Shown here one piece after another: positions 1,148 to 59,563 of a stretch of DNA of 64,000 bases. The translations under genes were made by a program, and so were the position numbers. The notes beneath the pieces were generated by a model that saw nothing but the letters and a program-made list of their open reading frames with translations, was not told the origin of the DNA and ran no database searches. How positions within the stretch are numbered: the first letter of the stretch is position 1; the number at the start of each line of letters is the position of its first letter. This DNA is from a phage, in the sequence record PX915677.1; one strand, 5' to 3'.

Positions 1148-1660
1148 ATGGCAATGCCAGATTTCAGAGGGGCTTTTACATATAACCCAAATACAGGGCA
1201 TCTTTTCTGGTCTATGAGTAACGTATTCAATAAACAGAAAGGGAAACGTGCTGGATGTATTAATAATAAAGGATATCGTGTATTAACCTTCAAGAAGAAA
1301 TCATACCTAGAGCATAAGGTCATAGCTGAACTCTTTCTTCCTAAAGTAGAAGGGAAGGATTATGTCAACCATAAGAATGGAATAAAAGACGATAACAGGA
1401 TTGAGAATCTAGAGTGGTGTACTCAACAAGAAAACTGTACACATGCTTTTGAAACAGGCCTCTCAACACCTAGGAGTCTTGAGGATAACCCTAATTCCAA
1501 ACTCACTAAAGAGCAAGTTCTCTTTTGTTTGGAGAACTACAAACCGAGAGATAGAGAGTTTGGAGCTAGAGCCTTAGCTAGAAAGTTTGGGGTCTCTAAA
1601 AGCACAATATCTCTCATTACTAAAGGCGTAAACTGGAAGGAGGTTTATTATGATGCCTGA
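1148..1660 (+). CDS. HNH homing endonuclease
   Basis: HNH motif ...DYVNHKNGIKDDNRIENLEW...; C-terminal HTH-like region; SD aaggagg; overlaps next gene by 11 nt as expected for an inserted free-standing HEG. Confidence 0.75.
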   Translation: MAMPDFRGAFTYNPNTGHLFWSMSNVFNKQKGKRAGCINNKGYRVLTFKKKSYLEHKVIAELFLPKVEGKDYVNHKNGIKDDNRIENLEWCTQQENCTHAFETGLSTPRSLEDNPNSKLTKEQVLFCLENYKPRDREFGARALARKFGVSKSTISLITKGVNWKEVYYDA

Positions 1661-4725: not shown

Positions 4726-6924
4726 ATGTCTAGAGAATTAATGCCCAAATCTGGTATAATGATGCCTCATGTGGTTGTAACCAGAGACGCGGCTGTTGTT
4801 GGGGTTTCTACTGTAGATGGACAGGCTGGAGCTATTAACCTCACCGGAAAATATTTACAGAAAACCGACGCAGCTGCTACCTATCAAACTAAAACAGAGG
4901 GTGCATCTAAAGATTTTGTGCTGGATTCGATTCAACCTATTATGTCTGGTGCGCTGTTCCGAGAAGACCCTTGGGTTGTTAATGATACCCCATTCCGTTC
5001 TACTGGAGCTAATGGTGTAGAATCAGTTGATATGATGAAAGTTACTACTGATAACTCAATCAAGATTGGTAGTTATGCCTCTTCAGTTCAAGGTGTAGAG
5101 ATTCATTCTGCTGGTCGTCTTCAGGTTGTTGACCAGAATGACTCTGGGGTAGAAACTAAGTATCCAGTTTATTCTAAACGTTACCGTCCTGAGATTGAGG
5201 ATTTGCCTTTTGCTGCAATTGGTTCTTATGTTAAAGACTCTAAAGGTCGTACGGTAGGTGTTACTCGTACAGGGATTAACTCTGATATCAAACAGCTCAC
5301 ACAGAAAGTTACTTTCACTCAACCAGTAACTGTCCCTGATGCAGTTGGTGATCATGATGCGGTTACTTTGAGACAGCTTCGAAACAGTGGTGGTGGCTCT
5401 GGTGGTCCTACGATGAGCGGTATCTCTAACTTTGGTATTGGTGATTTCCATTTACGTGACAGTCGAGCTTTTATTCCAGCTTTTGAGGTAACGTCAGACG
5501 GTCAGCTTCTTAATCGTTCAGAGTACCCAGATCTCTGGGCTTATGCACAGCTGTTATCCCCTATCTCAGATTCTGAATGGCTTAGTGATGCCCAAAAACG
5601 TGGACAGTACTCTACTGGTGATGGTTCTACTACTTTCCGCGTTCCAGACCGCAACGGGGTTCAGGTCGGTTCTATTAGGGAGCTATTTGGTCGCGGTGAT
5701 GGTGGTACATCATCCAACGATGGTGTTATCTATGATTCTGCTGCACCTAATATCAAAGGTAAGGTCGCTGGTGTATCAGCCGGGACTTATGCAGGGATAT
5801 TCGGGACGTCTGTGCAAGATTCATTCTATACGGATAACAGTTTGTATCCGGCTGGTGGAGGGGACACTATACCTCCGGGGTCCGGTGCAGTTGATGGACG
5901 TAATAATACTCTAGTCTTCGACGCAAGCCAGTCCAACCCAGTTTATGGTCGTTATAGTATCTCTGACAACATTATACCGAGAAACTTTGTGGGGGTTTGG
6001 ACTATTCGTGCTCATGGTGGATTTGTTGCTGCTAATACTTCTTGGTCTGTTATTAATAGTGACACCACACGACCTTCCAACGGAACGAAAGTTTCTAGTG
6101 GGTCAGTTGTCTCTGAGTATAAAATCGGTTCAGAAGTAGAAGCTTCTACTACTCTCAAAACTGATGCCTACATCAACGGAGCTTACTATGGAATCATTGA
6201 CGTCTACAATAAAACTAAAGGAGTTACCAAGCAGTTAGCTTTCGACGATTCTGGTACACTGAATTCTGATAGGTATGTTTCTAGATTTGGCACTTTGATG
6301 TCTTGGAGTGAAACAGGAGCTAGGAAAGGAACATTCTCCATGGACAACCAAGGGCTAGGGTCTAACTTCTCCTTCAATTCCATACTAAGTGCTTCTCAAT
6401 CATCTAGTGGGGGATACAAGACCACCACTCATGTTGGCATGATTCACAACGACGCCGGAACTTTTGCCGATTCTTGCTGGCACGTTGCAGGTGATGAAGA
6501 CAACAAATACGGTTGCCGTCTAACACTTCGACCAAACAGGAATGAGATTTTATATTATACTTGGCAACCCGGCTCTACTGGAACATACACTCTTGCTCTG
6601 AATCCCGTGTCAGATGAAAGATTAAAACATGATATCCAAGATATTTCCCCTGAGAAAGCTATCAAAGCTATTAAAGGTTTGGATTTCAAATCATTTGTGT
6701 ATAACAATGATGAGCAAGGAAGAACTCGTCGTGGTATTATTGCACAGCAAGCAGAAAAGGTAGAACCTCTTTATGTTAAGACTCGTAGGTTCCACGACAA
6801 TGATGGTGTAGAGCAAGAACAGAAAGAGCTAGACTCAGCTCCTATGCTCCTTGATACTATGCAGGTTGTTCAAGACCTTCTGAAGCGTATTGAAGTTCTA
6901 GAAGCAAAACTAGCAGAGAGGTAA
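4726..6924 (+). CDS. tail fiber/tailspike with C-terminal intramolecular chaperone (peptidase S74-like) domain
   Basis: C-terminus ...NPVSDERLKHDIQDISPEKAIKAIKGLDFKSFVYNND...GIIAQQ... matches the autoproteolytic chaperone domain of phage fibers and endosialidases; SD aaggag. Confidence 0.65.
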   Translation: MSRELMPKSGIMMPHVVVTRDAAVVGVSTVDGQAGAINLTGKYLQKTDAAATYQTKTEGASKDFVLDSIQPIMSGALFREDPWVVNDTPFRSTGANGVESVDMMKVTTDNSIKIGSYASSVQGVEIHSAGRLQVVDQNDSGVETKYPVYSKRYRPEIEDLPFAAIGSYVKDSKGRTVGVTRTGINSDIKQLTQKVTFTQPVTVPDAVGDHDAVTLRQLRNSGGGSGGPTMSGISNFGIGDFHLRDSRAFIPAFEVTSDGQLLNRSEYPDLWAYAQLLSPISDSEWLSDAQKRGQYSTGDGSTTFRVPDRNGVQVGSIRELFGRGDGGTSSNDGVIYDSAAPNIKGKVAGVSAGTYAGIFGTSVQDSFYTDNSLYPAGGGDTIPPGSGAVDGRNNTLVFDASQSNPVYGRYSISDNIIPRNFVGVWTIRAHGGFVAANTSWSVINSDTTRPSNGTKVSSGSVVSEYKIGSEVEASTTLKTDAYINGAYYGIIDVYNKTKGVTKQLAFDDSGTLNSDRYVSRFGTLMSWSETGARKGTFSMDNQGLGSNFSFNSILSASQSSSGGYKTTTHVGMIHNDAGTFADSCWHVAGDEDNKYGCRLTLRPNRNEILYYTWQPGSTGTYTLALNPVSDERLKHDIQDISPEKAIKAIKGLDFKSFVYNNDEQGRTRRGIIAQQAEKVEPLYVKTRRFHDNDGVEQEQKELDSAPMLLDTMQVVQDLLKRIEVLEAKLAER

Positions 6925-12612: not shown

Positions 12613-13632
12613 ATGGCATATGGAATATGGTGTCAACCTGTAGGTCCGGGGCCAGCTGCCCCTGCCCCTCTTTTTATTGACAGTAATCTAACATTTCCAC
12701 AATACCTAGGGGCATACAGCATATCCCCTTCGTGGAGTGCTAGAAACGCTTCATTTAATGTCGGCTCTTTTGATGGTCAAGGAGAGTTATTAATTGTCCC
12801 AACTAGTAGACTTATTCAAGACTATTACGTAGGGACGGATTTAATGCCTAGTTTTAGCTATGTAACAGGTATAGGGACTTCTGGACAAACAGTAAATATT
12901 AACATAGAGCCTGCTGGAGCTAGCGGTAATAACAATAGAAGCTTCCCAATGTCTTTCCAAGCATATAAACTATGGCCTAGAGGTAATAGAAGTTATGGAA
13001 TAACTTTCTCCAACTCAGCAGATTTCTTCTCTATCTCTGATAGTGGGGTTGTTGGTCAATGTGTTTGGGCGTACAGAGGGGCTGTAGGAGATGGTTTTAC
13101 TGTTCCTAATGCTGGTCCTAACGCTCTTGTGTTTGCTAATTGGAATCAGGGTGGGGTGTGTGCTTCTTACAATGCAAGCAATGGTCAAATGATCATAACC
13201 CACAACAGATCAAACCAGTCCGGAAGTAACAGGGGTGCAGTAATAAATGATATGAGGATCGCTGTTTTTGCCAGTGGAGTGGGTGTGCCAGAACATAATG
13301 GGGGTTTGAATATTTATTCTCCCGGAACTACTGCTTGCGTATTCTCTACTTACAGGACTCCTTTTGCTATTAGCAGGTTCTTCCCATCTAGTGGGGGTGA
13401 TACAGGTCTAGGTATTCCTATGATGTGTATGAACGTTACCAATGGAGCTATAACAGCGCAAGGGGGTGGGTGGATGTGGGTTCATGAAAGATCCCATACA
13501 ATGAGTGGTACATCGGTAGGAACAGGATTTGGACCACTTGTGGCTAACTGGACTGATCAATACCCAATCAATGTTAACATAAACCTAGGATTCAATTACC
13601 CAATGTTGGAAGGTTCTTTAATTTATGCATAA
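12613..13632 (+). CDS. virion structural protein
   Basis: 339-aa ORF, SD ggag, inside the structural operon. Confidence 0.4.
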   Translation: MAYGIWCQPVGPGPAAPAPLFIDSNLTFPQYLGAYSISPSWSARNASFNVGSFDGQGELLIVPTSRLIQDYYVGTDLMPSFSYVTGIGTSGQTVNINIEPAGASGNNNRSFPMSFQAYKLWPRGNRSYGITFSNSADFFSISDSGVVGQCVWAYRGAVGDGFTVPNAGPNALVFANWNQGGVCASYNASNGQMIITHNRSNQSGSNRGAVINDMRIAVFASGVGVPEHNGGLNIYSPGTTACVFSTYRTPFAISRFFPSSGGDTGLGIPMMCMNVTNGAITAQGGGWMWVHERSHTMSGTSVGTGFGPLVANWTDQYPINVNINLGFNYPMLEGSLIYA

Positions 13633-16490: not shown

Positions 16491-18140
16491 ATGCAACAGA
16501 CAACTTACGCTCAGGTCAGAAGTCGTGACCCGAGAAATACTTTCTATGGTGTTAATCCGGGAGCGGCTTCGGCCTCTCCTTATATGGCTAGACCAACTCA
16601 GACAGCAGATATTTCTATGTATCAACGTCCTGCTATACCTGCTGGGCTTTCCTCTCTTGTAGGTCAAACTTCAGTAGATTATCAGAATATGTTGAATCCT
16701 GTTCAGAGTAATGGTCTTCCTTCTGATATCCCAAATGATGTACAACCTCAAGCACAACAGGCTGTAACTCTTCCTGAGTTTGAGAATCAAGAAACCATGC
16801 AAACTGCTGGACTTTCCCCTTCTTCTATTCCTCCAGAATCAGAACCTCTTCCGGTAACACCTCCTACTAAACCGTTAGAAGCTGGTCCTATGGAGTTTAC
16901 TCCTTCTCAGGTGGAACAGGCACAAGGTGTGATTAATACTCTTGCTCAAGGACAAGACGCTGGTGATGGAATGACTGCTGCTACTCGTGCTAAAGATCAG
17001 GAACGTGTTAACAACGATATCTTGCAAGTTGCGAAAGCTAAAGACCCTTCGGAAGCTTGGAACAAACTACAGAAAGAACCATTCTATCAGAACTCTAGTT
17101 TCTACACAGGTTTGATGGGTGTAGGTCTTTCCATTATGTCAGGTAAGTCTCCTATTGAAGCTTTCCAGATTGGTCAGGGAATGGCTAATCAAGATGAGAC
17201 TAAGAAGCAACTGGAAGCTAACCGTGATGCTCTGATTGAACAAGGCTTCTCTCAAGACTCGATCGCAGCTGCTATTGCTAACGGAGATCCATCTCTACTG
17301 AAGATGAGAGCTGTAGACCCTGCTCAGAAAGAAGCGCTGTATGCTGCTCGTGAAGAACGACAAAATGCTGAATGGGATAGACGTCAACAGATTCAAGAGC
17401 AAACTATGCGTGAGCGTGCTGATGAAACTCGTCGTGCCGCTGAAGAAAGGGCTAACATGAACTTTGAACGTCAGAAAGAGTTGATTGGTTATCGTGATAA
17501 GGTTAAGGCTGAACGTGCTGAACAAGCTGCTCAGAGTTTTAACTTTAACCCGAAAGAAGTTCGTCTTGCTCAGAATACAGCTGAAGGTACGGTTGCTAAG
17601 CAGTGGGCAGAGAAAGGTGGCCTGTTTAACCAGTCTAACAAAGACTTGGATTTGGCTGATAAGGCTGTTAAGGATAAAGACTATCAGACAGCTCGTTCTG
17701 CTTACATGCAGGCTATCATGAACTCCGCAAGGGCTGAAATCGGTGCTACTCGTTCTCTTACCGAAGAAGACTTGGGGCACTTTGCAGAAGACCCATCAAT
17801 CTTCGTTCGTGTTGGCAACAAGTTTGCACTGAAATCTGGATGGCGTCCTACTGATTCTGCTCTTGCTTATGCTCGTAAGCAAGCTAACGTTGGTCACACC
17901 TCTGCAATGAAAGGTGTTGCTGATGCTAAGAGAGCTACGATTGAAGCTTACATCGGTTCTGGTATGGATAAGAAGAGAGCTACTGCATTGGTTAACCGTG
18001 CAATCCCTTCTGGTGGTTTCTATGACCCTCTAGGTGTTTTCTCTGAACAAGCAGAAGAAGCAGTTGGTGGTGCAGCAACCAATCCTAAGCTTAATGGTGC
18101 TTTATCAGCTGTCGAAGACACTAGCTGGTTTACTCAATAA
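16491..18140 (+). CDS. internal virion protein (putative)
   Basis: 549-aa ORF with SD, Pro/Gln-rich N-part and charged coiled-coil centre; structural operon context. Confidence 0.4.
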   Translation: MQQTTYAQVRSRDPRNTFYGVNPGAASASPYMARPTQTADISMYQRPAIPAGLSSLVGQTSVDYQNMLNPVQSNGLPSDIPNDVQPQAQQAVTLPEFENQETMQTAGLSPSSIPPESEPLPVTPPTKPLEAGPMEFTPSQVEQAQGVINTLAQGQDAGDGMTAATRAKDQERVNNDILQVAKAKDPSEAWNKLQKEPFYQNSSFYTGLMGVGLSIMSGKSPIEAFQIGQGMANQDETKKQLEANRDALIEQGFSQDSIAAAIANGDPSLLKMRAVDPAQKEALYAAREERQNAEWDRRQQIQEQTMRERADETRRAAEERANMNFERQKELIGYRDKVKAERAEQAAQSFNFNPKEVRLAQNTAEGTVAKQWAEKGGLFNQSNKDLDLADKAVKDKDYQTARSAYMQAIMNSARAEIGATRSLTEEDLGHFAEDPSIFVRVGNKFALKSGWRPTDSALAYARKQANVGHTSAMKGVADAKRATIEAYIGSGMDKKRATALVNRAIPSGGFYDPLGVFSEQAEEAVGGAATNPKLNGALSAVEDTSWFTQ

Positions 18141-22677: not shown

Positions 22678-22721
22678 TAAGTTTTAAAAACCATCAAATT
22701 CGTCATACATCCCAATTCTCT

Positions 22722-22814
22722 TCAGAAGTCTGGATGTTCATCTTCAAAGCATCCTGAGATGCCTCCATAGAACCAATCCGATTTACTTCCAAGGATAACA
22801 ACTTCTTCATTCAT
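22722..22814 (-). CDS. hypothetical small protein (30 aa)
   Basis: MNEEVVILGSKSDWFYGG...; strong SD aggaggg 3 nt upstream; not in ORF track (under 60 aa). Confidence 0.25.
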   Translation of the reverse strand: MNEEVVILGSKSDWFYGGISGCFEDEHPDF

Positions 22815-22992: not shown

Positions 22993-23220
22993 CTAGATTA
23001 AATCGTAATACTGAATAATGTCAGAGAGTTTGAACTCTCGAATCTCATCTTTCTCTACATCTATCGCTGTCATAATCCAACAAGGTTTGCCACCGTTATG
23101 AAAACGGGAGCTAGCAACGGAGGTTCGGAGTGGAATAACGGACCGGTCAGCAACCTCGCCTCTCCAATTGCGATAGCGAAAGCGAAGCACTTGTTGCGTA
23201 GATTTTTGATCATCACTCAT
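22993..23220 (-). CDS. small WYL-like domain protein
   Basis: FRYRNWRGEVADRSVIPL...GKPCWIMTAIDVEKDEIREFKLSDI resembles WYL-domain signature; start set at internal ATG abutting the HNH stop. Confidence 0.35.
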   Translation of the reverse strand: MSDDQKSTQQVLRFRYRNWRGEVADRSVIPLRTSVASSRFHNGGKPCWIMTAIDVEKDEIREFKLSDIIQYYDLI

Positions 23221-23614
23221 TTCCTTTTTTGAATTGTTTTCTTGCATCATTCTCTTCTTTTGTTTTAATCTTATGACAAGGGTCTTTACACAGAACTTGA
23301 AATCCCTCTTTCTCACACAGAGCACGAGAGATGATTTCATCCCAAGTTGCTTCATGATCTAAGGGAACTATAGGTTCTATGTGGTCAATAGCCATATCCT
23401 TTACAGGGTGGTCAGAACCACACATGGCACACTTAAAGTGCATTGCCAATCTACCTGTCTTTGGATTAATCTTCTGCTCTGTCTTGGCGTCTGCTAGTGC
23501 ATCGAACATGGGCTTCCACTTTCTAGTCAGAGAACGAATCCCTGACTTGATGAAAGAGTTATAACGAGCTTCAGTCCACATTCCACTACAGCGTATCTTC
23601 TCAGACTTCGCCAT
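23213..23614 (-). CDS. HNH endonuclease
   Basis: HFKCAMCGSDHPVKDMAIDHIEPIVPLDHEATWDE...LCKDPCH HNH zinc-finger nuclease motif. Confidence 0.7.
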   Translation of the reverse strand: MAKSEKIRCSGMWTEARYNSFIKSGIRSLTRKWKPMFDALADAKTEQKINPKTGRLAMHFKCAMCGSDHPVKDMAIDHIEPIVPLDHEATWDEIISRALCEKEGFQVLCKDPCHKIKTKEENDARKQFKKGNE

Positions 23615-23790: not shown

Positions 23791-24303
23791 TTATTTTATC
23801 CAGTCTCTTTCTATATAGGAGGTTGTGAGCTTACGTCTCTCTGCTTCAGTGGAGAAGATGACTACTACACTTCCTTTAGTGTTACCACTAACACTTTGCT
23901 GTGTATCTGCTCTTGTGAAACTCACACGACCACCTGTTATGAAAACAATCTCATCAGCATGGTTTATACACTTAGTAAACCACTTAACAGAAGTATCAGC
24001 TGGTAGCAATAAAACTGTACCAACTTTAAGTTTCTTGTTTTTGATTGCCAAGTCAACCCAAGGAGTTATGTCTGAATATGGAGGATTACACCAAGTGTAA
24101 GTGTTTCTGAACTCAGAGAAATCATAGGTTAGAGAATCCATTTCCTCTGTTATATATTTTTCTAGTAGATGATTCTTGTCACTAGATGCTATATCACAGG
24201 AGAATTCAAACCTTGTGTTAAAGAAATCAAACAGCCATTTAGGGGTTTGCCATAAATCTCTAATGTCTTCTGGGGTATTACTAGATCTATAATCTGTTAC
24301 CAT
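23791..24303 (-). CDS. DNA N6-adenine methyltransferase (phage Dam-like)
   Basis: WQTPKWLFDFFNTRFEFSCDIAS and catalytic NPPY motif (TWCNPPYSDITPW). Confidence 0.75.
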   Translation of the reverse strand: MVTDYRSSNTPEDIRDLWQTPKWLFDFFNTRFEFSCDIASSDKNHLLEKYITEEMDSLTYDFSEFRNTYTWCNPPYSDITPWVDLAIKNKKLKVGTVLLLPADTSVKWFTKCINHADEIVFITGGRVSFTRADTQQSVSGNTKGSVVVIFSTEAERRKLTTSYIERDWIK

Positions 24304-25995: not shown

Positions 25996-27487
<1,492 letters not shown>

Positions 27488-27488
<1 letters not shown>

Positions 27489-27787
27489 TATTCTATTCCA
27501 CGCTCTTTAAGAGCTTCTAACAATCCGTTGTGATTAGCAGCACATTCTGTGTACTGGTCCTGATACCACTCCAACGTAGTGGCTAGTGCTTTTCCTTGAG
27601 CACTCTCTAAAAGAGGTAGGTCAACCCTACATTCAGCTTTTAGGTTTGTTGGTAAGGGCATTGATTGCCTGCTGTTGTCGCTCGTTGAACAAGCTGATAA
27701 ACTAAAAGCTAGCAAAATCCCCGTACAACTCAATAGCTTTTTCTTTATATGCACACCTAGCTCCTTCCAGTGTATCATGAAAACCAA
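27488..27787 (-). CDS. lipoprotein (o-spanin candidate)
   Basis: Signal peptide KKKLLSCTGILLAFSLSAC with lipobox LSAC; short Cys/Pro-containing mature part. Confidence 0.4.
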
Positions 27788-28160
27788 GCCAAATAACCTT
27801 ATCCTCGAATCCTATTCGAGCAGTCCATTTGTTAACATCCTTCCTATACCCGACACCTTTTATGCCTGTTATAGAATTCTTCTGAGCAGATGTATTCATC
27901 TGATTCTGCGCATTGGTTGCTTTTCTTAGGTTAGTCCAAGAGTTGTTAGATTTAATCTGATCTTTGTGGTCAATATCAGTATCAGGGATTTCCCCTGTTT
28001 TTAAATACCAAGCCACTCTGTGCGCTTTATGCGCTTTTCCATTAAATCTAATAATAATGTATCCAGCATCTATCAAACAACCGGCTTCTTTTCCAGCAAA
28101 CCTAGAGTTCCATTGATTGCTCTTCTTTTCAGAGCTTCTCCATGTTAGCTTTCCTGACAC
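27702..28160 (-). CDS. HNH homing endonuclease with AP2-type DNA-binding domain
   Basis: HRVAWYLKTGEIPDTDIDHKDQIKSNNSWTNLR HNH_3-like motif plus GVGYRKDVNKWTARIGFEDKVIWLGFHDTLEGARCAYKEKA AP2-like domain. Confidence 0.7.
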   Translation of the reverse strand: MSGKLTWRSSEKKSNQWNSRFAGKEAGCLIDAGYIIIRFNGKAHKAHRVAWYLKTGEIPDTDIDHKDQIKSNNSWTNLRKATNAQNQMNTSAQKNSITGIKGVGYRKDVNKWTARIGFEDKVIWLGFHDTLEGARCAYKEKAIELYGDFASF

Positions 28161-28183
28161 TTCATCATAGGATAAAAACTCTT

Positions 28184-28528
28184 CTATTCCTTCGATTTTA
28201 AAACCCTCTCAGCTTCTTTCTGTCTCTGGTTAAATAGAGAGACATACTCATCACTAGCGCAGACATTATAAAAAACTGGTTTAGTTTTCTCATAATGCAT
28301 CTCTTTATAAATGGTTTCCGTGTTCTTCTTCCAGTTAGATAAACCGGTAAGAACCCTCTGAGCAACTTCATCAGCTGCTCTATTTCTTTCAATCTCTAAC
28401 TCTTGTTGATGTTTCTCTTTGTCCAGATTACTGCTGTCTGTTTGATATTCGTTAAACTTCATACCACCAAAGAATACAAGAGCTGAGAAAACGATAAACC
28501 CTAAGTTATCACTTAATGTGTTTTGCAT
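28184..28528 (-). CDS. membrane-anchored coiled-coil protein (i-spanin candidate)
   Basis: N-terminal TM LGFIVFSALVFFGG then charged helical domain; start moved to ATG 28528 because the listed start lies inside the upstream terminator. Confidence 0.35.
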   Translation of the reverse strand: MQNTLSDNLGFIVFSALVFFGGMKFNEYQTDSSNLDKEKHQQELEIERNRAADEVAQRVLTGLSNWKKNTETIYKEMHYEKTKPVFYNVCASDEYVSLFNQRQKEAERVLKSKE

Positions 28529-28540
28529 GTTGTCTCCAAC

Positions 28541-28564
28541 GAAAAAAGCCACCCGGAGGTGGCT
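28541..28564 (-). terminator. rho-independent terminator (minus strand)
   Basis: agccacc-loop-ggtggct stem with U-tract on the minus strand (A6 on plus 28541-46). Confidence 0.6.
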
Positions 28565-28585
28565 AAGCTATAACAAGGAGAGTTA

Positions 28586-29332
28586 TTAGAATGGGCTATC
28601 GTTGTCGTCTTCGTAAGTAGAAGCAGGCTCTTTATCAATCGTAGGGATTGAAGGAGTAGCTTCTTTCTGCTCTGTTTCAGAAGCACGAGTAATTTCACGA
28701 CCAGCCAGAGGCATGTTCTTAGCGTCATTAGCTTGAGTAAGCAGGTTGCGCTGGAACGGGAACATCAGTTGATAGGATGCTACGTTCTCATCGGTTTCCG
28801 CATACGGTTCGAAGAATACCAGAGGACTACGAGCTTCACCAACTGCTGCACGATATTTGGTTGGGATTGGAGAAATGGTCTTGATGGAGTTTTTAACTTC
28901 ACCAGCTTTGTTAGTGTAAGAGTTAACCAGAATGTTAACAGGCTGACCTAACAGAACATCCTTGAACCAAGACAGATCACCTTTCAGTGCTTGAATGCTT
29001 GGGTCAATCATCTTGCAAAGATCAAGAATACCAGAGTTCTTAGCTCGTGGGTTTACATCATAGCTCTTGAACTGGCAAGCCGGACGTGGTTCTAATGCCT
29101 TACCATCGGAATCTTTACCAGTAGCATCAACACCAATCAGCTCGAAAGCCAAATCCATACGGAAAGCCGGATTCTTAGGAGTTACTGCTTTGGTCTTCGG
29201 GTCAATCCAAGGGTCACGATTGTGAACACCCAAACCTACTACACGAACGATACGAGCTTCGTATTCACCATCAGGGATTACATCGTAGTTGGATTTACGA
29301 GAAGAAGTTGCGATAGTTGGAATCATAGACAT
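28586..29332 (-). CDS. putative ssDNA-binding protein
   Basis: 248 aa with acidic C-terminal tail ...YEDDNDSPF ending in Phe as in SSB/gp2.5-type proteins; promoter motif upstream and terminator downstream. Confidence 0.45.
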   Translation of the reverse strand: MSMIPTIATSSRKSNYDVIPDGEYEARIVRVVGLGVHNRDPWIDPKTKAVTPKNPAFRMDLAFELIGVDATGKDSDGKALEPRPACQFKSYDVNPRAKNSGILDLCKMIDPSIQALKGDLSWFKDVLLGQPVNILVNSYTNKAGEVKNSIKTISPIPTKYRAAVGEARSPLVFFEPYAETDENVASYQLMFPFQRNLLTQANDAKNMPLAGREITRASETEQKEATPSIPTIDKEPASTYEDDNDSPF

Positions 29333-38004: not shown

Positions 38005-38661
38005 TTAACTCTCCACAGTTTTCTTCAGAGCTGCCCATGAGATTGGGTAGAGTTTAGCCATCTCTTCATCCAGAGATTTAGCAAACACTCGAACTTCATA
38101 TTGAGCGTGAGATGAGAGTCGCTGACGACACAACTCAAACCAGCCATACAAAGAACCAGTCCACACCCACTCAGTGATCATCCCCTGAGGAAGAACAAAT
38201 CGAGCTTGCTCTGGTGCAATAAATTCAATCAACTTGTCATATGCTGCTAGAGAAGCTTCATATGCATCGTTAATCAGCATTAATGCTTCAGCTCGCTCTC
38301 CGTTGATGAGTTGAATCCCTGAACCTGCATGGAGGTCCGAAGGTCTCGCAAAAATCTCTTTAGGGATGAAGACTTCAACTGCTCCATCTTTATACCGCCG
38401 GGACATTTCGTTCCACGAGAATCCAACCTGATGCTTCTGTAGTTGACGAGCGATTGCAATTGGAGCCTTACAACGAAAGGACACTTGTGGGTGACGGAAC
38501 GGAGTGCAGTGTTTCTCTCTAGCCAAGAAGTTAATCAGCCTAGTATCACGATCATTCAAATCACCCTCTCGTACAACACCAAAAGAAACTCTTGCAGCAT
38601 TAACAACAGTTTTATCACTGCCCATAGCTTCAATCAATGTTGCTTGCAATTGTTCATTCAT
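38005..38661 (-). CDS. thyX: flavin-dependent thymidylate synthase (ThyX-like), variant signature
   Basis: ThyX-like ...KHQVGFSWNEMSRRY tail (canonical RHR appears as KHQ) and overall size. Confidence 0.55.
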   Translation of the reverse strand: MNEQLQATLIEAMGSDKTVVNAARVSFGVVREGDLNDRDTRLINFLAREKHCTPFRHPQVSFRCKAPIAIARQLQKHQVGFSWNEMSRRYKDGAVEVFIPKEIFARPSDLHAGSGIQLINGERAEALMLINDAYEASLAAYDKLIEFIAPEQARFVLPQGMITEWVWTGSLYGWFELCRQRLSSHAQYEVRVFAKSLDEEMAKLYPISWAALKKTVES

Positions 38662-39133
38662 ACTTCAACTTCTCCTTGTTATAAGCAATCTCTGCTTCCT
38701 CTGGAGTATGGAAAGTTCCTAAATGCTTAGTCTTTCCGTTAACTCCGATTATAGCTCTGAATTTTGTACCACTAGCCGTCTCTCTGATGTAAACACCCAT
38801 TGGAAGTTTTCCAGCTTTTCCGGCTCTATTGTATTGTTTTCTGTTATGACAGTTTGTAGATGGGTCAACATCTCTTAGGTTTTTAAGAGAGTCATCCAGT
38901 TTAATCTGGTTGATGTGATCAATCTCAAACTCAGGCATCTTTCCATAAGAGAAAAACCAAGCTAATCGACATGCTCTGTAAGATTTCCCTTCATAATAGA
39001 TGTACCTGTAACCTAATGTTGAGACACACCCAGCAATGTTCCCTGATACTCTCCTACCTTTGGTATTCTTCCACCTAAAGATTCCAGTATCAGGGTCATA
39101 TGCTAAGTCTTCTTTTATCTTATCAGTTAACAC
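38654..39133 (-). CDS. HNH homing endonuclease with AP2-type DNA-binding domain
   Basis: YRACRLAWFFSYGKMPEFEIDHINQIKLDDSLKNLR plus AP2-like GVYIRETASGTKFRAIIGVNGKTKHLGTFHTPEEAEIAY. Confidence 0.7.
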   Translation of the reverse strand: MLTDKIKEDLAYDPDTGIFRWKNTKGRRVSGNIAGCVSTLGYRYIYYEGKSYRACRLAWFFSYGKMPEFEIDHINQIKLDDSLKNLRDVDPSTNCHNRKQYNRAGKAGKLPMGVYIRETASGTKFRAIIGVNGKTKHLGTFHTPEEAEIAYNKEKLKYE

Positions 39134-39398
39134 CTAAAGCTGTATCCAAAAATGCTTTCAGGTTTGCTTCAGTCTGCATACCAGAGAGGCTGTAATGTGT
39201 TCCACTGTTACGGTCAGGTACAACAAAAGCAGGGATGCTTCGTACACCATACTTAACAGCTTGTTCACGACCATCACCTTCAAGGATGTTAATCTCTTCC
39301 ACTTCTACATCAAACTCCTTAACAACCTTCTCAAAGGTAGGAGCCATTGCTTTACATGGAGCACACTGATCACTATAAAACTTAATTACTTTAGGCAT
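39123..39398 (-). CDS. thioredoxin-like protein
   Basis: CxxC active site in FYSDQCAPCKAMAP, about 90 aa, SD aagga. Confidence 0.65.
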   Translation of the reverse strand: MPKVIKFYSDQCAPCKAMAPTFEKVVKEFDVEVEEINILEGDGREQAVKYGVRSIPAFVVPDRNSGTHYSLSGMQTEANLKAFLDTALGVN

Positions 39399-59487: not shown

Positions 59488-59563
59488 TGGTGCGCCCTAC
59501 AGGACTCGAACCTGTAACCAATAGCTTAGAAGGCTACTGCTCTATCCATTGAGCTAAGAGCGC
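59488..59563 (-). tRNA. tRNA-Arg (anticodon TCT)
   Basis: Hand-folded cloverleaf: acceptor GCGCTCT/AGGGCGC, D-arm GCTC-AATGGAT-AGAGC, anticodon loop CTTCTAA, T-arm ACAGG-TTCGAGT-CCTGT, encoded CCA. Confidence 0.8.

Follow-up and report, generated by a model that had tools for sequence, protein, structure and literature searches.

Three putative free-standing homing endonuclease genes and a predicted core HNH nuclease gene in a phiEco32-like podophage

Introduction

I-HmuI, found together with I-HmuII in the Bacillus phages SPO1 and SP82, is a strand-specific nickase encoded in a group I intron of a DNA polymerase gene. T4-like phages carry the free-standing endonucleases Seg, which belong to the GIY-YIG family, and Mob, and these are known for intronless homing. 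Here we analyzed a stretch of 64,000 nucleotides of phage DNA (sequence record PX915677.1; hereafter the window, meaning the whole stretch) that contains four HNH genes, which we name HEG#1 (1148-1660), HNH#2 (23213-23614), HEG#3 (27702-28160), and HEG#4 (38654-39133). HEG#1 lies on the plus strand and the other three on the minus strand. With a probability of roughly 0.85, we consider HEG#1, HEG#3, and HEG#4 to be free-standing homing endonuclease genes (HEGs) of the I-HmuI-like HNH_3 class and HNH#2 to be a core gene that does not home.

Residues 26 to 114 of HEG#1 align with I-HmuI, including the HNH motif (VNHKNGIKDDNRIENLEWCTQQEN versus VDHKDGNKDNNLSTNLRWVTQKIN), and HEG#1 resembles I-HmuI in size and in its modular combination of a nuclease with a C-terminal DNA-binding region. 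The similarity is nevertheless distant (E value of 4e-5 for HEG#1 against I-HmuI, 1U3E). Moreover, the intron context of I-HmuI has no equivalent here, the HEGs being free-standing, and the DNA-binding modules are AP2 in HEG#3 and HEG#4 and a weak helix-turn-helix (HTH) in HEG#1. The analogy with I-HmuI suggests that homing of these HEGs could be initiated by a nick. Like the Seg and Mob genes, they are small nuclease genes that lie between conserved genes or at their ends, with a patchy distribution, co-conversion of their flanks, and sequence divergence concentrated beside the insertion. Unlike those genes, all three are of the HNH_3 type and are fused into the translation signals of their neighbors, through borrowed starts and an overprinted signal peptide. 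To our knowledge, this integration with the neighboring genes is tighter than that of any Seg or Mob gene.

A closely comparable locus has been described in another phage group. The spanins of T5 are overlapped, while those of Shivani and phiR201 are separated by a GIY-YIG homing endonuclease gene, and between T5 and these two phages the i-spanins differ only at the extreme C terminus, differences among the o-spanins being confined to the lipoylation signal sequence (Kongari et al. 2018, PMC6139136). The i- and o-spanins at the HEG#3 locus differ in the same pattern. However, the gene involved is HNH_3-AP2 and not GIY-YIG, and the new signal peptide is located inside the HEG#3 ORF (open reading frame), in another frame. 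The phiEco32, NJ01, and ECBP2 spanins are listed only as overlapped in that study (PMC6139136), and the HEG#3 locus would represent a second, independent case in which a homing gene separates overlapped spanins, here with a different nuclease family.

The same genes are annotated at the same sites in GenBank relatives (IME267 gp011, KM01 "homing endonuclease," Ptacy1532 "HNH homing endonuclease," and SU7 gp032), with amino acid identities of 90 to 93.5% for HEG#1, 97 to 99% for HEG#3, and 96 to 99% for HEG#4. Homing endonuclease insertions have also been noted in the Gordonclarkvirinae (PMC11990801). HEGs are thus ordinary for such phages and a known phenomenon; here, the sequence shows unusually clear signatures of mobility and a neat spanin architecture.

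Results

Domains and distribution of the HNH genes

Sequence comparison places the window in a phiEco32-like Escherichia coli podophage of the Gordonclarkvirinae (Kuravirus and Suseptimavirus). The 5 kb around HEG#1 showed up to 98.6% identity to phiEco32-like phages, the best matches spanning only 90% of the query, and in a whole-window comparison the sequence was colinear with SkaterBoy_Bas90 at 90 to 99% identity. The blocks specific to the window relative to SkaterBoy_Bas90 were 1167-1652, 23796-24296, 27704-28240, and 38682-39138, plus small or divergent stretches.

A sequence-only reading had proposed four free-standing homing endonuclease genes in the window. The four ORFs are all present at the coordinates proposed, and all are HNH according to Pfam and PHROG matches; no further HNH paralogue was found in the window. 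The homing assignment held for HEG#1, HEG#3, and HEG#4, for which relatives have empty sites, and failed for HNH#2, which behaves as a core gene. HEG#1, HEG#3, and HEG#4 are related to one another, while HNH#2 is unrelated to them and belongs to a different HNH family. The three HEGs matched Pfam HNH_3 with 44.6 bits (1e-11), 57.8 bits (8e-16), and 29.3 bits (7e-7), respectively, against a gathering score of 24.8, and PHROG HNH families at 2e-38 for HEG#1 (PHROG 59), 4e-57 for HEG#3, and 5e-54 for HEG#4 (PHROG 99). Their HNH motifs (NHKNGIKDDNRIENL in HEG#1, DHKDQIKSNNSWTNL in HEG#3, and DHINQIKLDDSLKNL in HEG#4) have the DH/NH...N...NL pattern intact, the predicted catalytic histidines being H74, H65, and H73, respectively, counted from the ORF starts. 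NCBIfam gave no match for any of the four HNH proteins, and PDB sequence searches returned nothing useful for HEG#4 or HNH#2.

Presence and absence were counted in a reference set of about 99 related records. Of these, about 12 carry HEG#1, about 9 carry HEG#3, and about 13 carry HEG#4, and no record listed for any of the three genes has all of them together. SkaterBoy lacks all three, and most relatives have empty alleles at precisely the insertion sites. The G+C content of the HEGs (0.38 to 0.39) is slightly lower than the window mean (0.42).

HEG#1 and the start of gp13

HEG#1 (1148-1660, +) encodes 170 amino acids and is located between the Ig-like head gene and the gp13/tail fiber genes. 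Its proposed position between head and tail genes was correct, as was its 11-nt overlap with the next gene (1650-2399). It has no counterpart in SkaterBoy_Bas90 and phiEco32, although the flanks are nearly identical (about 96 to 98% in SkaterBoy), and tblastn detected it in 12 phage records at 76 to 93.5% identity. Comparison with HEG-minus alleles revealed a net insertion of 499 nt (1163-1661, +). With junctions marked by slashes, HEG-minus phages read ATGGCAATGCCAGAT/GTTCAATACCCC and the window reads ATGGCAATGCCAGAT/TTCAGAGG...AAGGAGGTTTATTATGATGCCTGAC/GTCCAATACCCC; the same junctions were found in every HEG-plus relative.

The target of HEG#1 is a gp13-like virion structural gene (1650-2399, +), which from about position 1670 is SkaterBoy-like, that is, of the HEG-minus type. 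In the empty allele, gp13 begins MAMPDVQYP, encoded by AGGAGGACAACCT ATG GCA ATG CCA GAT/GTT CAA TAC CCC. In the window, the ancestral Shine-Dalgarno (SD) sequence of gp13, its ATG, and five codons now open the HEG#1 ORF (MAMPD-FRG...). The 3' end of HEG#1 in turn holds AAGGAGGTTTATT ATG ATG CCT GAC GTC CAA TAC CCC, a new SD (GGAGG) with a recoded gp13 start (1640-1664, +; ATGATGCCTGACGTC versus the ancestral ATGGCAATGCCAGATGTT), in which three of the five shared codons carry synonymous changes and one codon has been lost. HEG#1 therefore takes from gp13 a gp36-type late promoter motif, an SD, and five codons and returns a new SD and a recoded start.

The promoter motif in question is TAATGTATA (1106-1114, +), a match to the motif of the phage sigma factor gp36 (defined in PMC4281155), and a terminator scan detected an intrinsic terminator-like hairpin with a T run further upstream (1051-1074, +). 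The region from 1051 to 1114 is nearly identical in HEG-minus phages (0 to 1 differences per 100 nt), indicating that these signals were those of gp13 and now stand upstream of HEG#1. HEG#1 is the first ORF 3' of a gp36-type promoter motif, presumably on a middle or late transcript. Exact copies of TAATGTATA occur five times in the window (1106, +; 18161, +; 29392, -; 29464, +; 35956, -), versus 0.67 expected, with the pair 29392/29464 divergent. These copies probably mark middle and late promoters.

The HEG#1 allele is itself a mosaic. Positions 1163 to 1362 are TH06/IME267-like, and positions 1390 to 1664 are of the 1-6af type, with a single difference at 1435. From position 1670, the window is like HEG-minus SkaterBoy, while 1-6af diverges by 15 to 45%. 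This pattern implies one breakpoint inside HEG#1 and one at most 10 nt from its 3' end, and we interpret the allele as a recombinant of two known allele types.

The HEG#3 cassette in the spanin pair

Alignment with the HEG-minus phages phiEco32 and Ec3-ASingh and with the HEG-plus phage KM01 delimited a HEG#3 cassette of 545 nt (27696-28240, -) inside the pair formed by the i-spanin gene Rz (28184-28528, -) and the o-spanin gene Rz1 (27488-27754, -; GTG start). The ORF as listed (27702-28160, -) has a GTG start and encodes 152 amino acids with HNH_3 and AP2 domains. Rz has the hydrophobic stretch GFIVFSALVFFGG and Rz1 an LSAC lipobox, as expected of spanins. HEG#3 is missing in phiEco32, Ec3-ASingh, and most relatives but present at 97 to 99% identity in KM01, EK010, and E20-1. 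A version with 65 to 68% identity exists in SU7, Bas86, Bas87, and PAS59, and in SU7 and Bas86, the two phages inspected, it lies at this spanin locus as well.

Rz of the empty allele closes with ...ASDEYV SLFNERQQQAINALTNKPKS and a stop. Rz1 starts within it, shifted to the +1 frame (MRKLNQFFIMSALVMSMSAC/S...), so that the two genes have the overlapped architecture; the Rz/Rz1 junction reads GATGAGTATGTC/AGCTTGTTCAACGAGCG. The cassette is inserted after ...EYV of Rz. It opens with a replacement Rz tail, a short spacer then leads to the HNH-AP2 ORF, and the last element is a new start and signal peptide for Rz1. It provides the last 18 codons of Rz (SLFNQRQKEAERVLKSKE and a stop), located in the recoded Rz 3' end defined by the alignment (28184-28240, -). 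The first seven codons of this new tail duplicate ancestral ones (TCTCTATTTAACCAGAGACAG versus AGCTTGTTCAACGAGCGACAA): five differ by synonymous changes, an AAC is unaltered, and the remaining codon is changed nonsynonymously (CAG for GAG). At the other end of the cassette, the last 53 nt of HEG#3 encode, in another frame, the Rz1 signal peptide (M)HIKKKLLSCTGILLAFSLSAC, which is joined to the unchanged mature lipoprotein and overprints the helix of the HEG#3 AP2 domain that aligns with plant AP2. The ancestral Rz tail SLFNERQQQAINALTNKPKS with its stop is left as a relic past the HEG#3 stop, and a truncated old Rz1 signal sequence is a second relic. From these alignments, the spanins of the window are predicted to be a separated two-component pair and those of the HEG-minus relatives to have the overlapped form, HEG#3 turning the latter into the former.

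SU7 and Bas86 follow this design too, their recoded duplicate being longer (GLFNERQQQA...). In their upstream Rz copy, the amino acids GLFNERQQQA are kept while 7 of 11 codons show a synonymous change, which implies that this copy is translated. In the SU7 record, the O-spanin is annotated as overlapping the HNH gene.

The surroundings of the cassette allowed us to compare its history with that of its flanks. Over more than 1.8 kb (26300-27700 and 28241-28700), the flanks have no mismatch to HEG-minus Ec3-ASingh. The cassette itself is about 5% divergent from that of EK010, which belongs to another genus and whose flanks are about 19% divergent. Being far closer to EK010 than the flanks are, the cassette appears to have been transferred between genera.

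The HEG#3 family has a conserved LSYDE motif located 5' of the first canonical start, and SU7 and Bas86 offer no canonical start. Twelve codons 5' of the HEG#3 GTG, an Ile codon is conserved in position and preceded by an SD at 7 nt; it is ATC in the window (28196-28194), KM01, and EK010 and ATT in SU7 and Bas86. A start at this codon would bring LSYDE into the translated region and would give SU7 and Bas86 a start, so a non-canonical start is suggested, and the ATC at 28196-28194 is probably the true start of HEG#3. We also considered a programmed -1 frameshift from Rz into HEG#3, as a U_UUA_AAA heptamer is located in the new Rz tail (28195-28201, -) and has the correct register in the window as well as in KM01 and EK010. 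The heptamer is not conserved in SU7/Bas86 and the product would be a periplasmic fusion, and its occurrence is probably due to chance.

Several public annotations of this locus differ from the architecture described here. In phi32_38 (L009, 1289-1462) and Bas90_0031 (L019, 32526-32699), the annotated o-spanin begins at an internal Met (MPLPT...) and leaves out the signal peptide and the lipobox, and Bas86_0031 (L017, 333-1225) is an Rz annotated as a two-piece joined coding sequence across the HNH gene. These o-spanin starts and the joined Bas86 Rz look wrong.

HEG#4 between thioredoxin and thyX

HEG#4 (38654-39133, -) encodes 159 amino acids with an AP2-like tail and lies between the ThyX and thioredoxin (trx) genes, as proposed. 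It is absent from SkaterBoy and most relatives, whose empty allele consists of trx ending ...ALSNK, 15 nt, and the ATG of thyX. Seven records carry it at at least 96% identity, and six more have a 72% version adjoining thyX. In the window, the last three codons of trx are changed (ALGVN), the GTG start of HEG#4 overlaps the end of trx, stop included, by 11 nt, and the stop of HEG#4 overlaps the thyX ATG (TATGAATGA), with an AAGGAG SD for thyX in the HEG#4 3' end.

Comparison with the HEG-minus allele also revealed a 5' tract of thyX of about 240 nt (38422-38661, -) that is co-inherited with HEG#4. This tract is 27% divergent, with 65 differences and only six amino acid changes, while beyond it there are 0 to 6 differences per 60 nt. 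Among HEG#4 carriers, the tract is near-identical. Suseptimavirus EK010 was checked as a donor of the tract and is not the source.

Selection and recombination at the three HEGs

The ratio of nonsynonymous to synonymous substitution rates (dN/dS) was 0.04 to 0.15 for all three HEGs and each copy is an intact ORF, indicating that they encode functioning proteins and are under purifying selection. A transposon-like insertion was ruled out, as no target-site duplications or terminal repeats surround any of them. Instead, all three loci carry what we read as footprints of gene conversion, in the form of recoded junctions together with edge breakpoints or a co-inherited divergent flank. The earlier suggestion that the HEGs mark recombination hotspots is in agreement with the breakpoints and co-converted tracts found at the edges of HEG#1, HEG#3, and HEG#4, and the HEG-minus alleles to be sought in relatives were found for three of the four genes.

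Several observations weigh against homing by these genes. HEG#1 has an Asn instead of an Asp preceding the catalytic His, a change that looks tolerable, and its C-terminal HTH gave weak matches (E values of 0.02 to 0.2). The two AP2-type domains that had been proposed hold with caveats: that of HEG#3 was detected by Pfam at 4e-6 (27.4 bits), under the gathering score of 33.3, and matched a plant AP2 structure (WRI1) at 1.8e-4, while HEG#4 had no direct AP2 match and was assigned through its alignment with HEG#3 across this region (BLASTP, 1e-20). The positions of the target sites were deduced solely from the junctions. The SD of HEG#1 is strong, but the starts of HEG#3 and HEG#4 are weak (GTG or possibly ATC, with a poor SD or none), making their expression uncertain. 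Finally, repeated loss by recombination with HEG-minus phages could in principle produce the presence/absence pattern, and ordinary homologous recombination between co-infecting mosaic phages likewise yields breakpoints.

These last points are at the core of an alternative that we consider unlikely, in which the three patchy HNH genes are passengers whose homing activity has been lost or never existed, that spread and disappear by ordinary homologous recombination among co-infecting mosaic Kuraviruses, and that are maybe kept for the translation signals of the downstream genes. Indeed, the gene after each HEG obtains from it an SD and start or a signal peptide, an arrangement that would entrench the HEG whether or not its nuclease is active, and mosaicism is also found elsewhere, in the tail fiber region and as small indels. 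However, the low dN/dS extends over the whole proteins, catalytic and DNA-binding parts included, which argues for selection on protein function and not just on the signals embedded in the genes. Passengers would also not be expected to show a HEG#3 cassette far more alike between genera than its flanks or breakpoints clustered at the edges of HEG#1. We therefore favor homing endonuclease genes as the identity of HEG#1, HEG#3, and HEG#4.

HNH#2, the core nuclease gene

HNH#2 (23213-23614, -), the orthologue of phi32_30, matched the PHROG 3106 "HNH endonuclease" family at 5.5e-40, while its Pfam HNH score (15.1 bits) was under the gathering score of 21.4. It has the CxxC...DH...Cx3CH motif of a zinc-finger HNH. 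By tblastn, it was found at at least 60% identity in 99/99 related records, a number equal to that of the related records retrieved when flanking DNA from other regions was used. It occupies the same position in the three relatives inspected (SkaterBoy, phiEco32, and EK5) and is the sole HNH gene of SkaterBoy. The search for HEG-minus alleles thus had a negative outcome for this gene, no empty site being found among the 99 records. Its divergence tracks that of the flanks, with 99% identity in Kuravirus and about 80% in Suseptimavirus. Furthermore, homologues with 33 to 48% identity directly follow the 5'-3' exonuclease gene in Zobellviridae, as in Pseudomonas TC6 (L024, 3480-3905) and Citrobacter CVT22 (L025, 3480-3854). 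Universal presence and synteny with Zobellviridae argue that HNH#2 is a core gene rather than a homing element, and we regard it as a vertically inherited core nuclease of the replication/recombination module, downstream of the 5'-3' exonuclease. The conserved order suggests a functional link of long standing between these two nucleases.

The original proposal that all four genes are homing endonucleases would require HNH#2 to have become fixed throughout the subfamily. In favor of this, the HNH#2 ORF is small and free-standing, and a variable HNH gene, phi32_31, lies right beside it in phiEco32, so the locus does attract such genes. We nevertheless judge fixation to be quite improbable, given the presence of HNH#2 in every record with divergence following the flanks, its identical place after the exonuclease in Zobellviridae, and its different HNH type from the mobile three.

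Many records label HNH#2 orthologues "terminase small subunit." HNH#2 is located in the leftward replication module, about 27 kb from the portal and head genes (the presumed packaging module) on the SkaterBoy map. A terminase-associated role was rejected, the gene not being adjacent to terminase or portal genes, and a Kuravirus paper also rejects the small-terminase label (PMC9965538). HNH#2 is, like the packaging HNH proteins of the HK97 gp74 type, a small zinc-finger HNH (Kala et al. 2014, as cited in PMC9965538), but it follows the 5'-3' exonuclease in the replication module and does not stand beside terminase genes.

Two neighbors of HNH#2 were recorded. A phage N6-adenine methyltransferase gene (23791-24303, -; TIGR01712, 1.8e-38), whose start overlaps the exonuclease stop, represents a 501-nt presence/absence polymorphism. 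It is located between the exonuclease gene and a small ORF that precedes HNH#2, and within the phage collection, it was found only in EK5, DE5, and EcM-vB1. A 41-nt stretch just 3' of the large gp26-like gene (22684-22724) matched about 125 records of T4-like Klebsiella phages at 95% identity. A shared mobile element near HNH#2 was rejected as the explanation, the match being trivial and too short to interpret, and so was the Dam-like methyltransferase, present in three records only.

Absence of introns

None of the three HEGs lies in an intron according to Rfam searches, in agreement with the description of them as free-standing. No match to RF00028 or any other Rfam intron was found across the window at the gathering score or in 27400-28400 at an E value of at most 10, and no splicing is needed to complete the ORFs of gp13, Rz, Rz1, trx, and thyX. 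That HEG#3 sits in a self-splicing intron interrupting Rz, with splicing restoring the ancestral tail, is therefore most improbable: the ancestral tail SLFNERQQQAINALTNKPKS does occur just past the HEG#3 stop, in frame with HEG#3, and the Bas86 record does join Rz across the HNH gene, but even the permissive search gave no group I or II match, a ribozyme core would have no more than about 80 nt before the ORF and 6 nt after it, the upstream copy gives Rz its own stop and is marked as translated by the synonymous changes in SU7/Bas86, and the persistence of the downstream relic is accounted for by mature Rz1, which its second frame encodes.

Discussion

We propose the following mechanism. A carrier and a non-carrier phage would co-infect a cell, and the enzyme would bind the uninterrupted site through its C-terminal module (HTH in HEG#1, AP2 in HEG#3 and HEG#4) and nick or cut nearby. 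Recombinational repair from the carrier genome would then copy the HEG with a short flank. The carrier allele would be protected, as the insertion splits the site and the neighboring codons are recoded.

Judging from the junctions, each cassette is seated so as to cost the phage nothing and to resist simple deletion. HEG#3 may be an "entrenched" mobile element in this sense, and HEG#1 and HEG#4 likewise, through the SD and start of gp13 and thyX; that this would reflect a general deletion-proofing strategy is a tentative idea, which we hold to be possible rather than probable. If it were true, a simple deletion of HEG#3 would abolish outer-membrane disruption, and HEG#3 could be lost only through recombination with an empty allele.

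Natural relatives without them indicate that HEG#1, HEG#3, and HEG#4 are dispensable in principle. For phage engineering, a simple deletion is nonetheless precluded, since the gene that follows relies on each of them for its translation start signals or its signal peptide. The window and Ec3-ASingh for HEG#3, and the window and SkaterBoy_Bas90 for HEG#1, form near-isogenic occupied/empty pairs that could serve as material for studying homing in a non-T4 system. Annotation corrections would concern the phiEco32-type o-spanin without a signal peptide, the joined Rz of Bas86, and the "small terminase" label of HNH#2.

The window had been described as having a high load of mobile elements. This holds in a relative sense only, since the relative YF01 has also been reported to have four HNH genes (PMC9965538). 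Two further HNH genes were observed in relatives at sites that are empty in the window: phi32_31 of phiEco32 (L006, 1998-2450), which adjoins HNH#2, and gp036 of SU10 (L010, 1843-2256), located between Rz and the phi32_40 homologue. They indicate that the subfamily has several insertion sites, used in varying combinations.

Other features of the window

SkaterBoy_Bas90 had no nucleotide match to the window at 6063-6606, 12684-13630, and 16641-16841, in the tail fiber and virion region. These unmatched stretches probably reflect the exchange of host-range modules. Finally, the window contains one tRNA gene (59491-59563, -; Rfam, 72 bits), the orthologue of which is annotated as tRNA-Arg in the SkaterBoy record.

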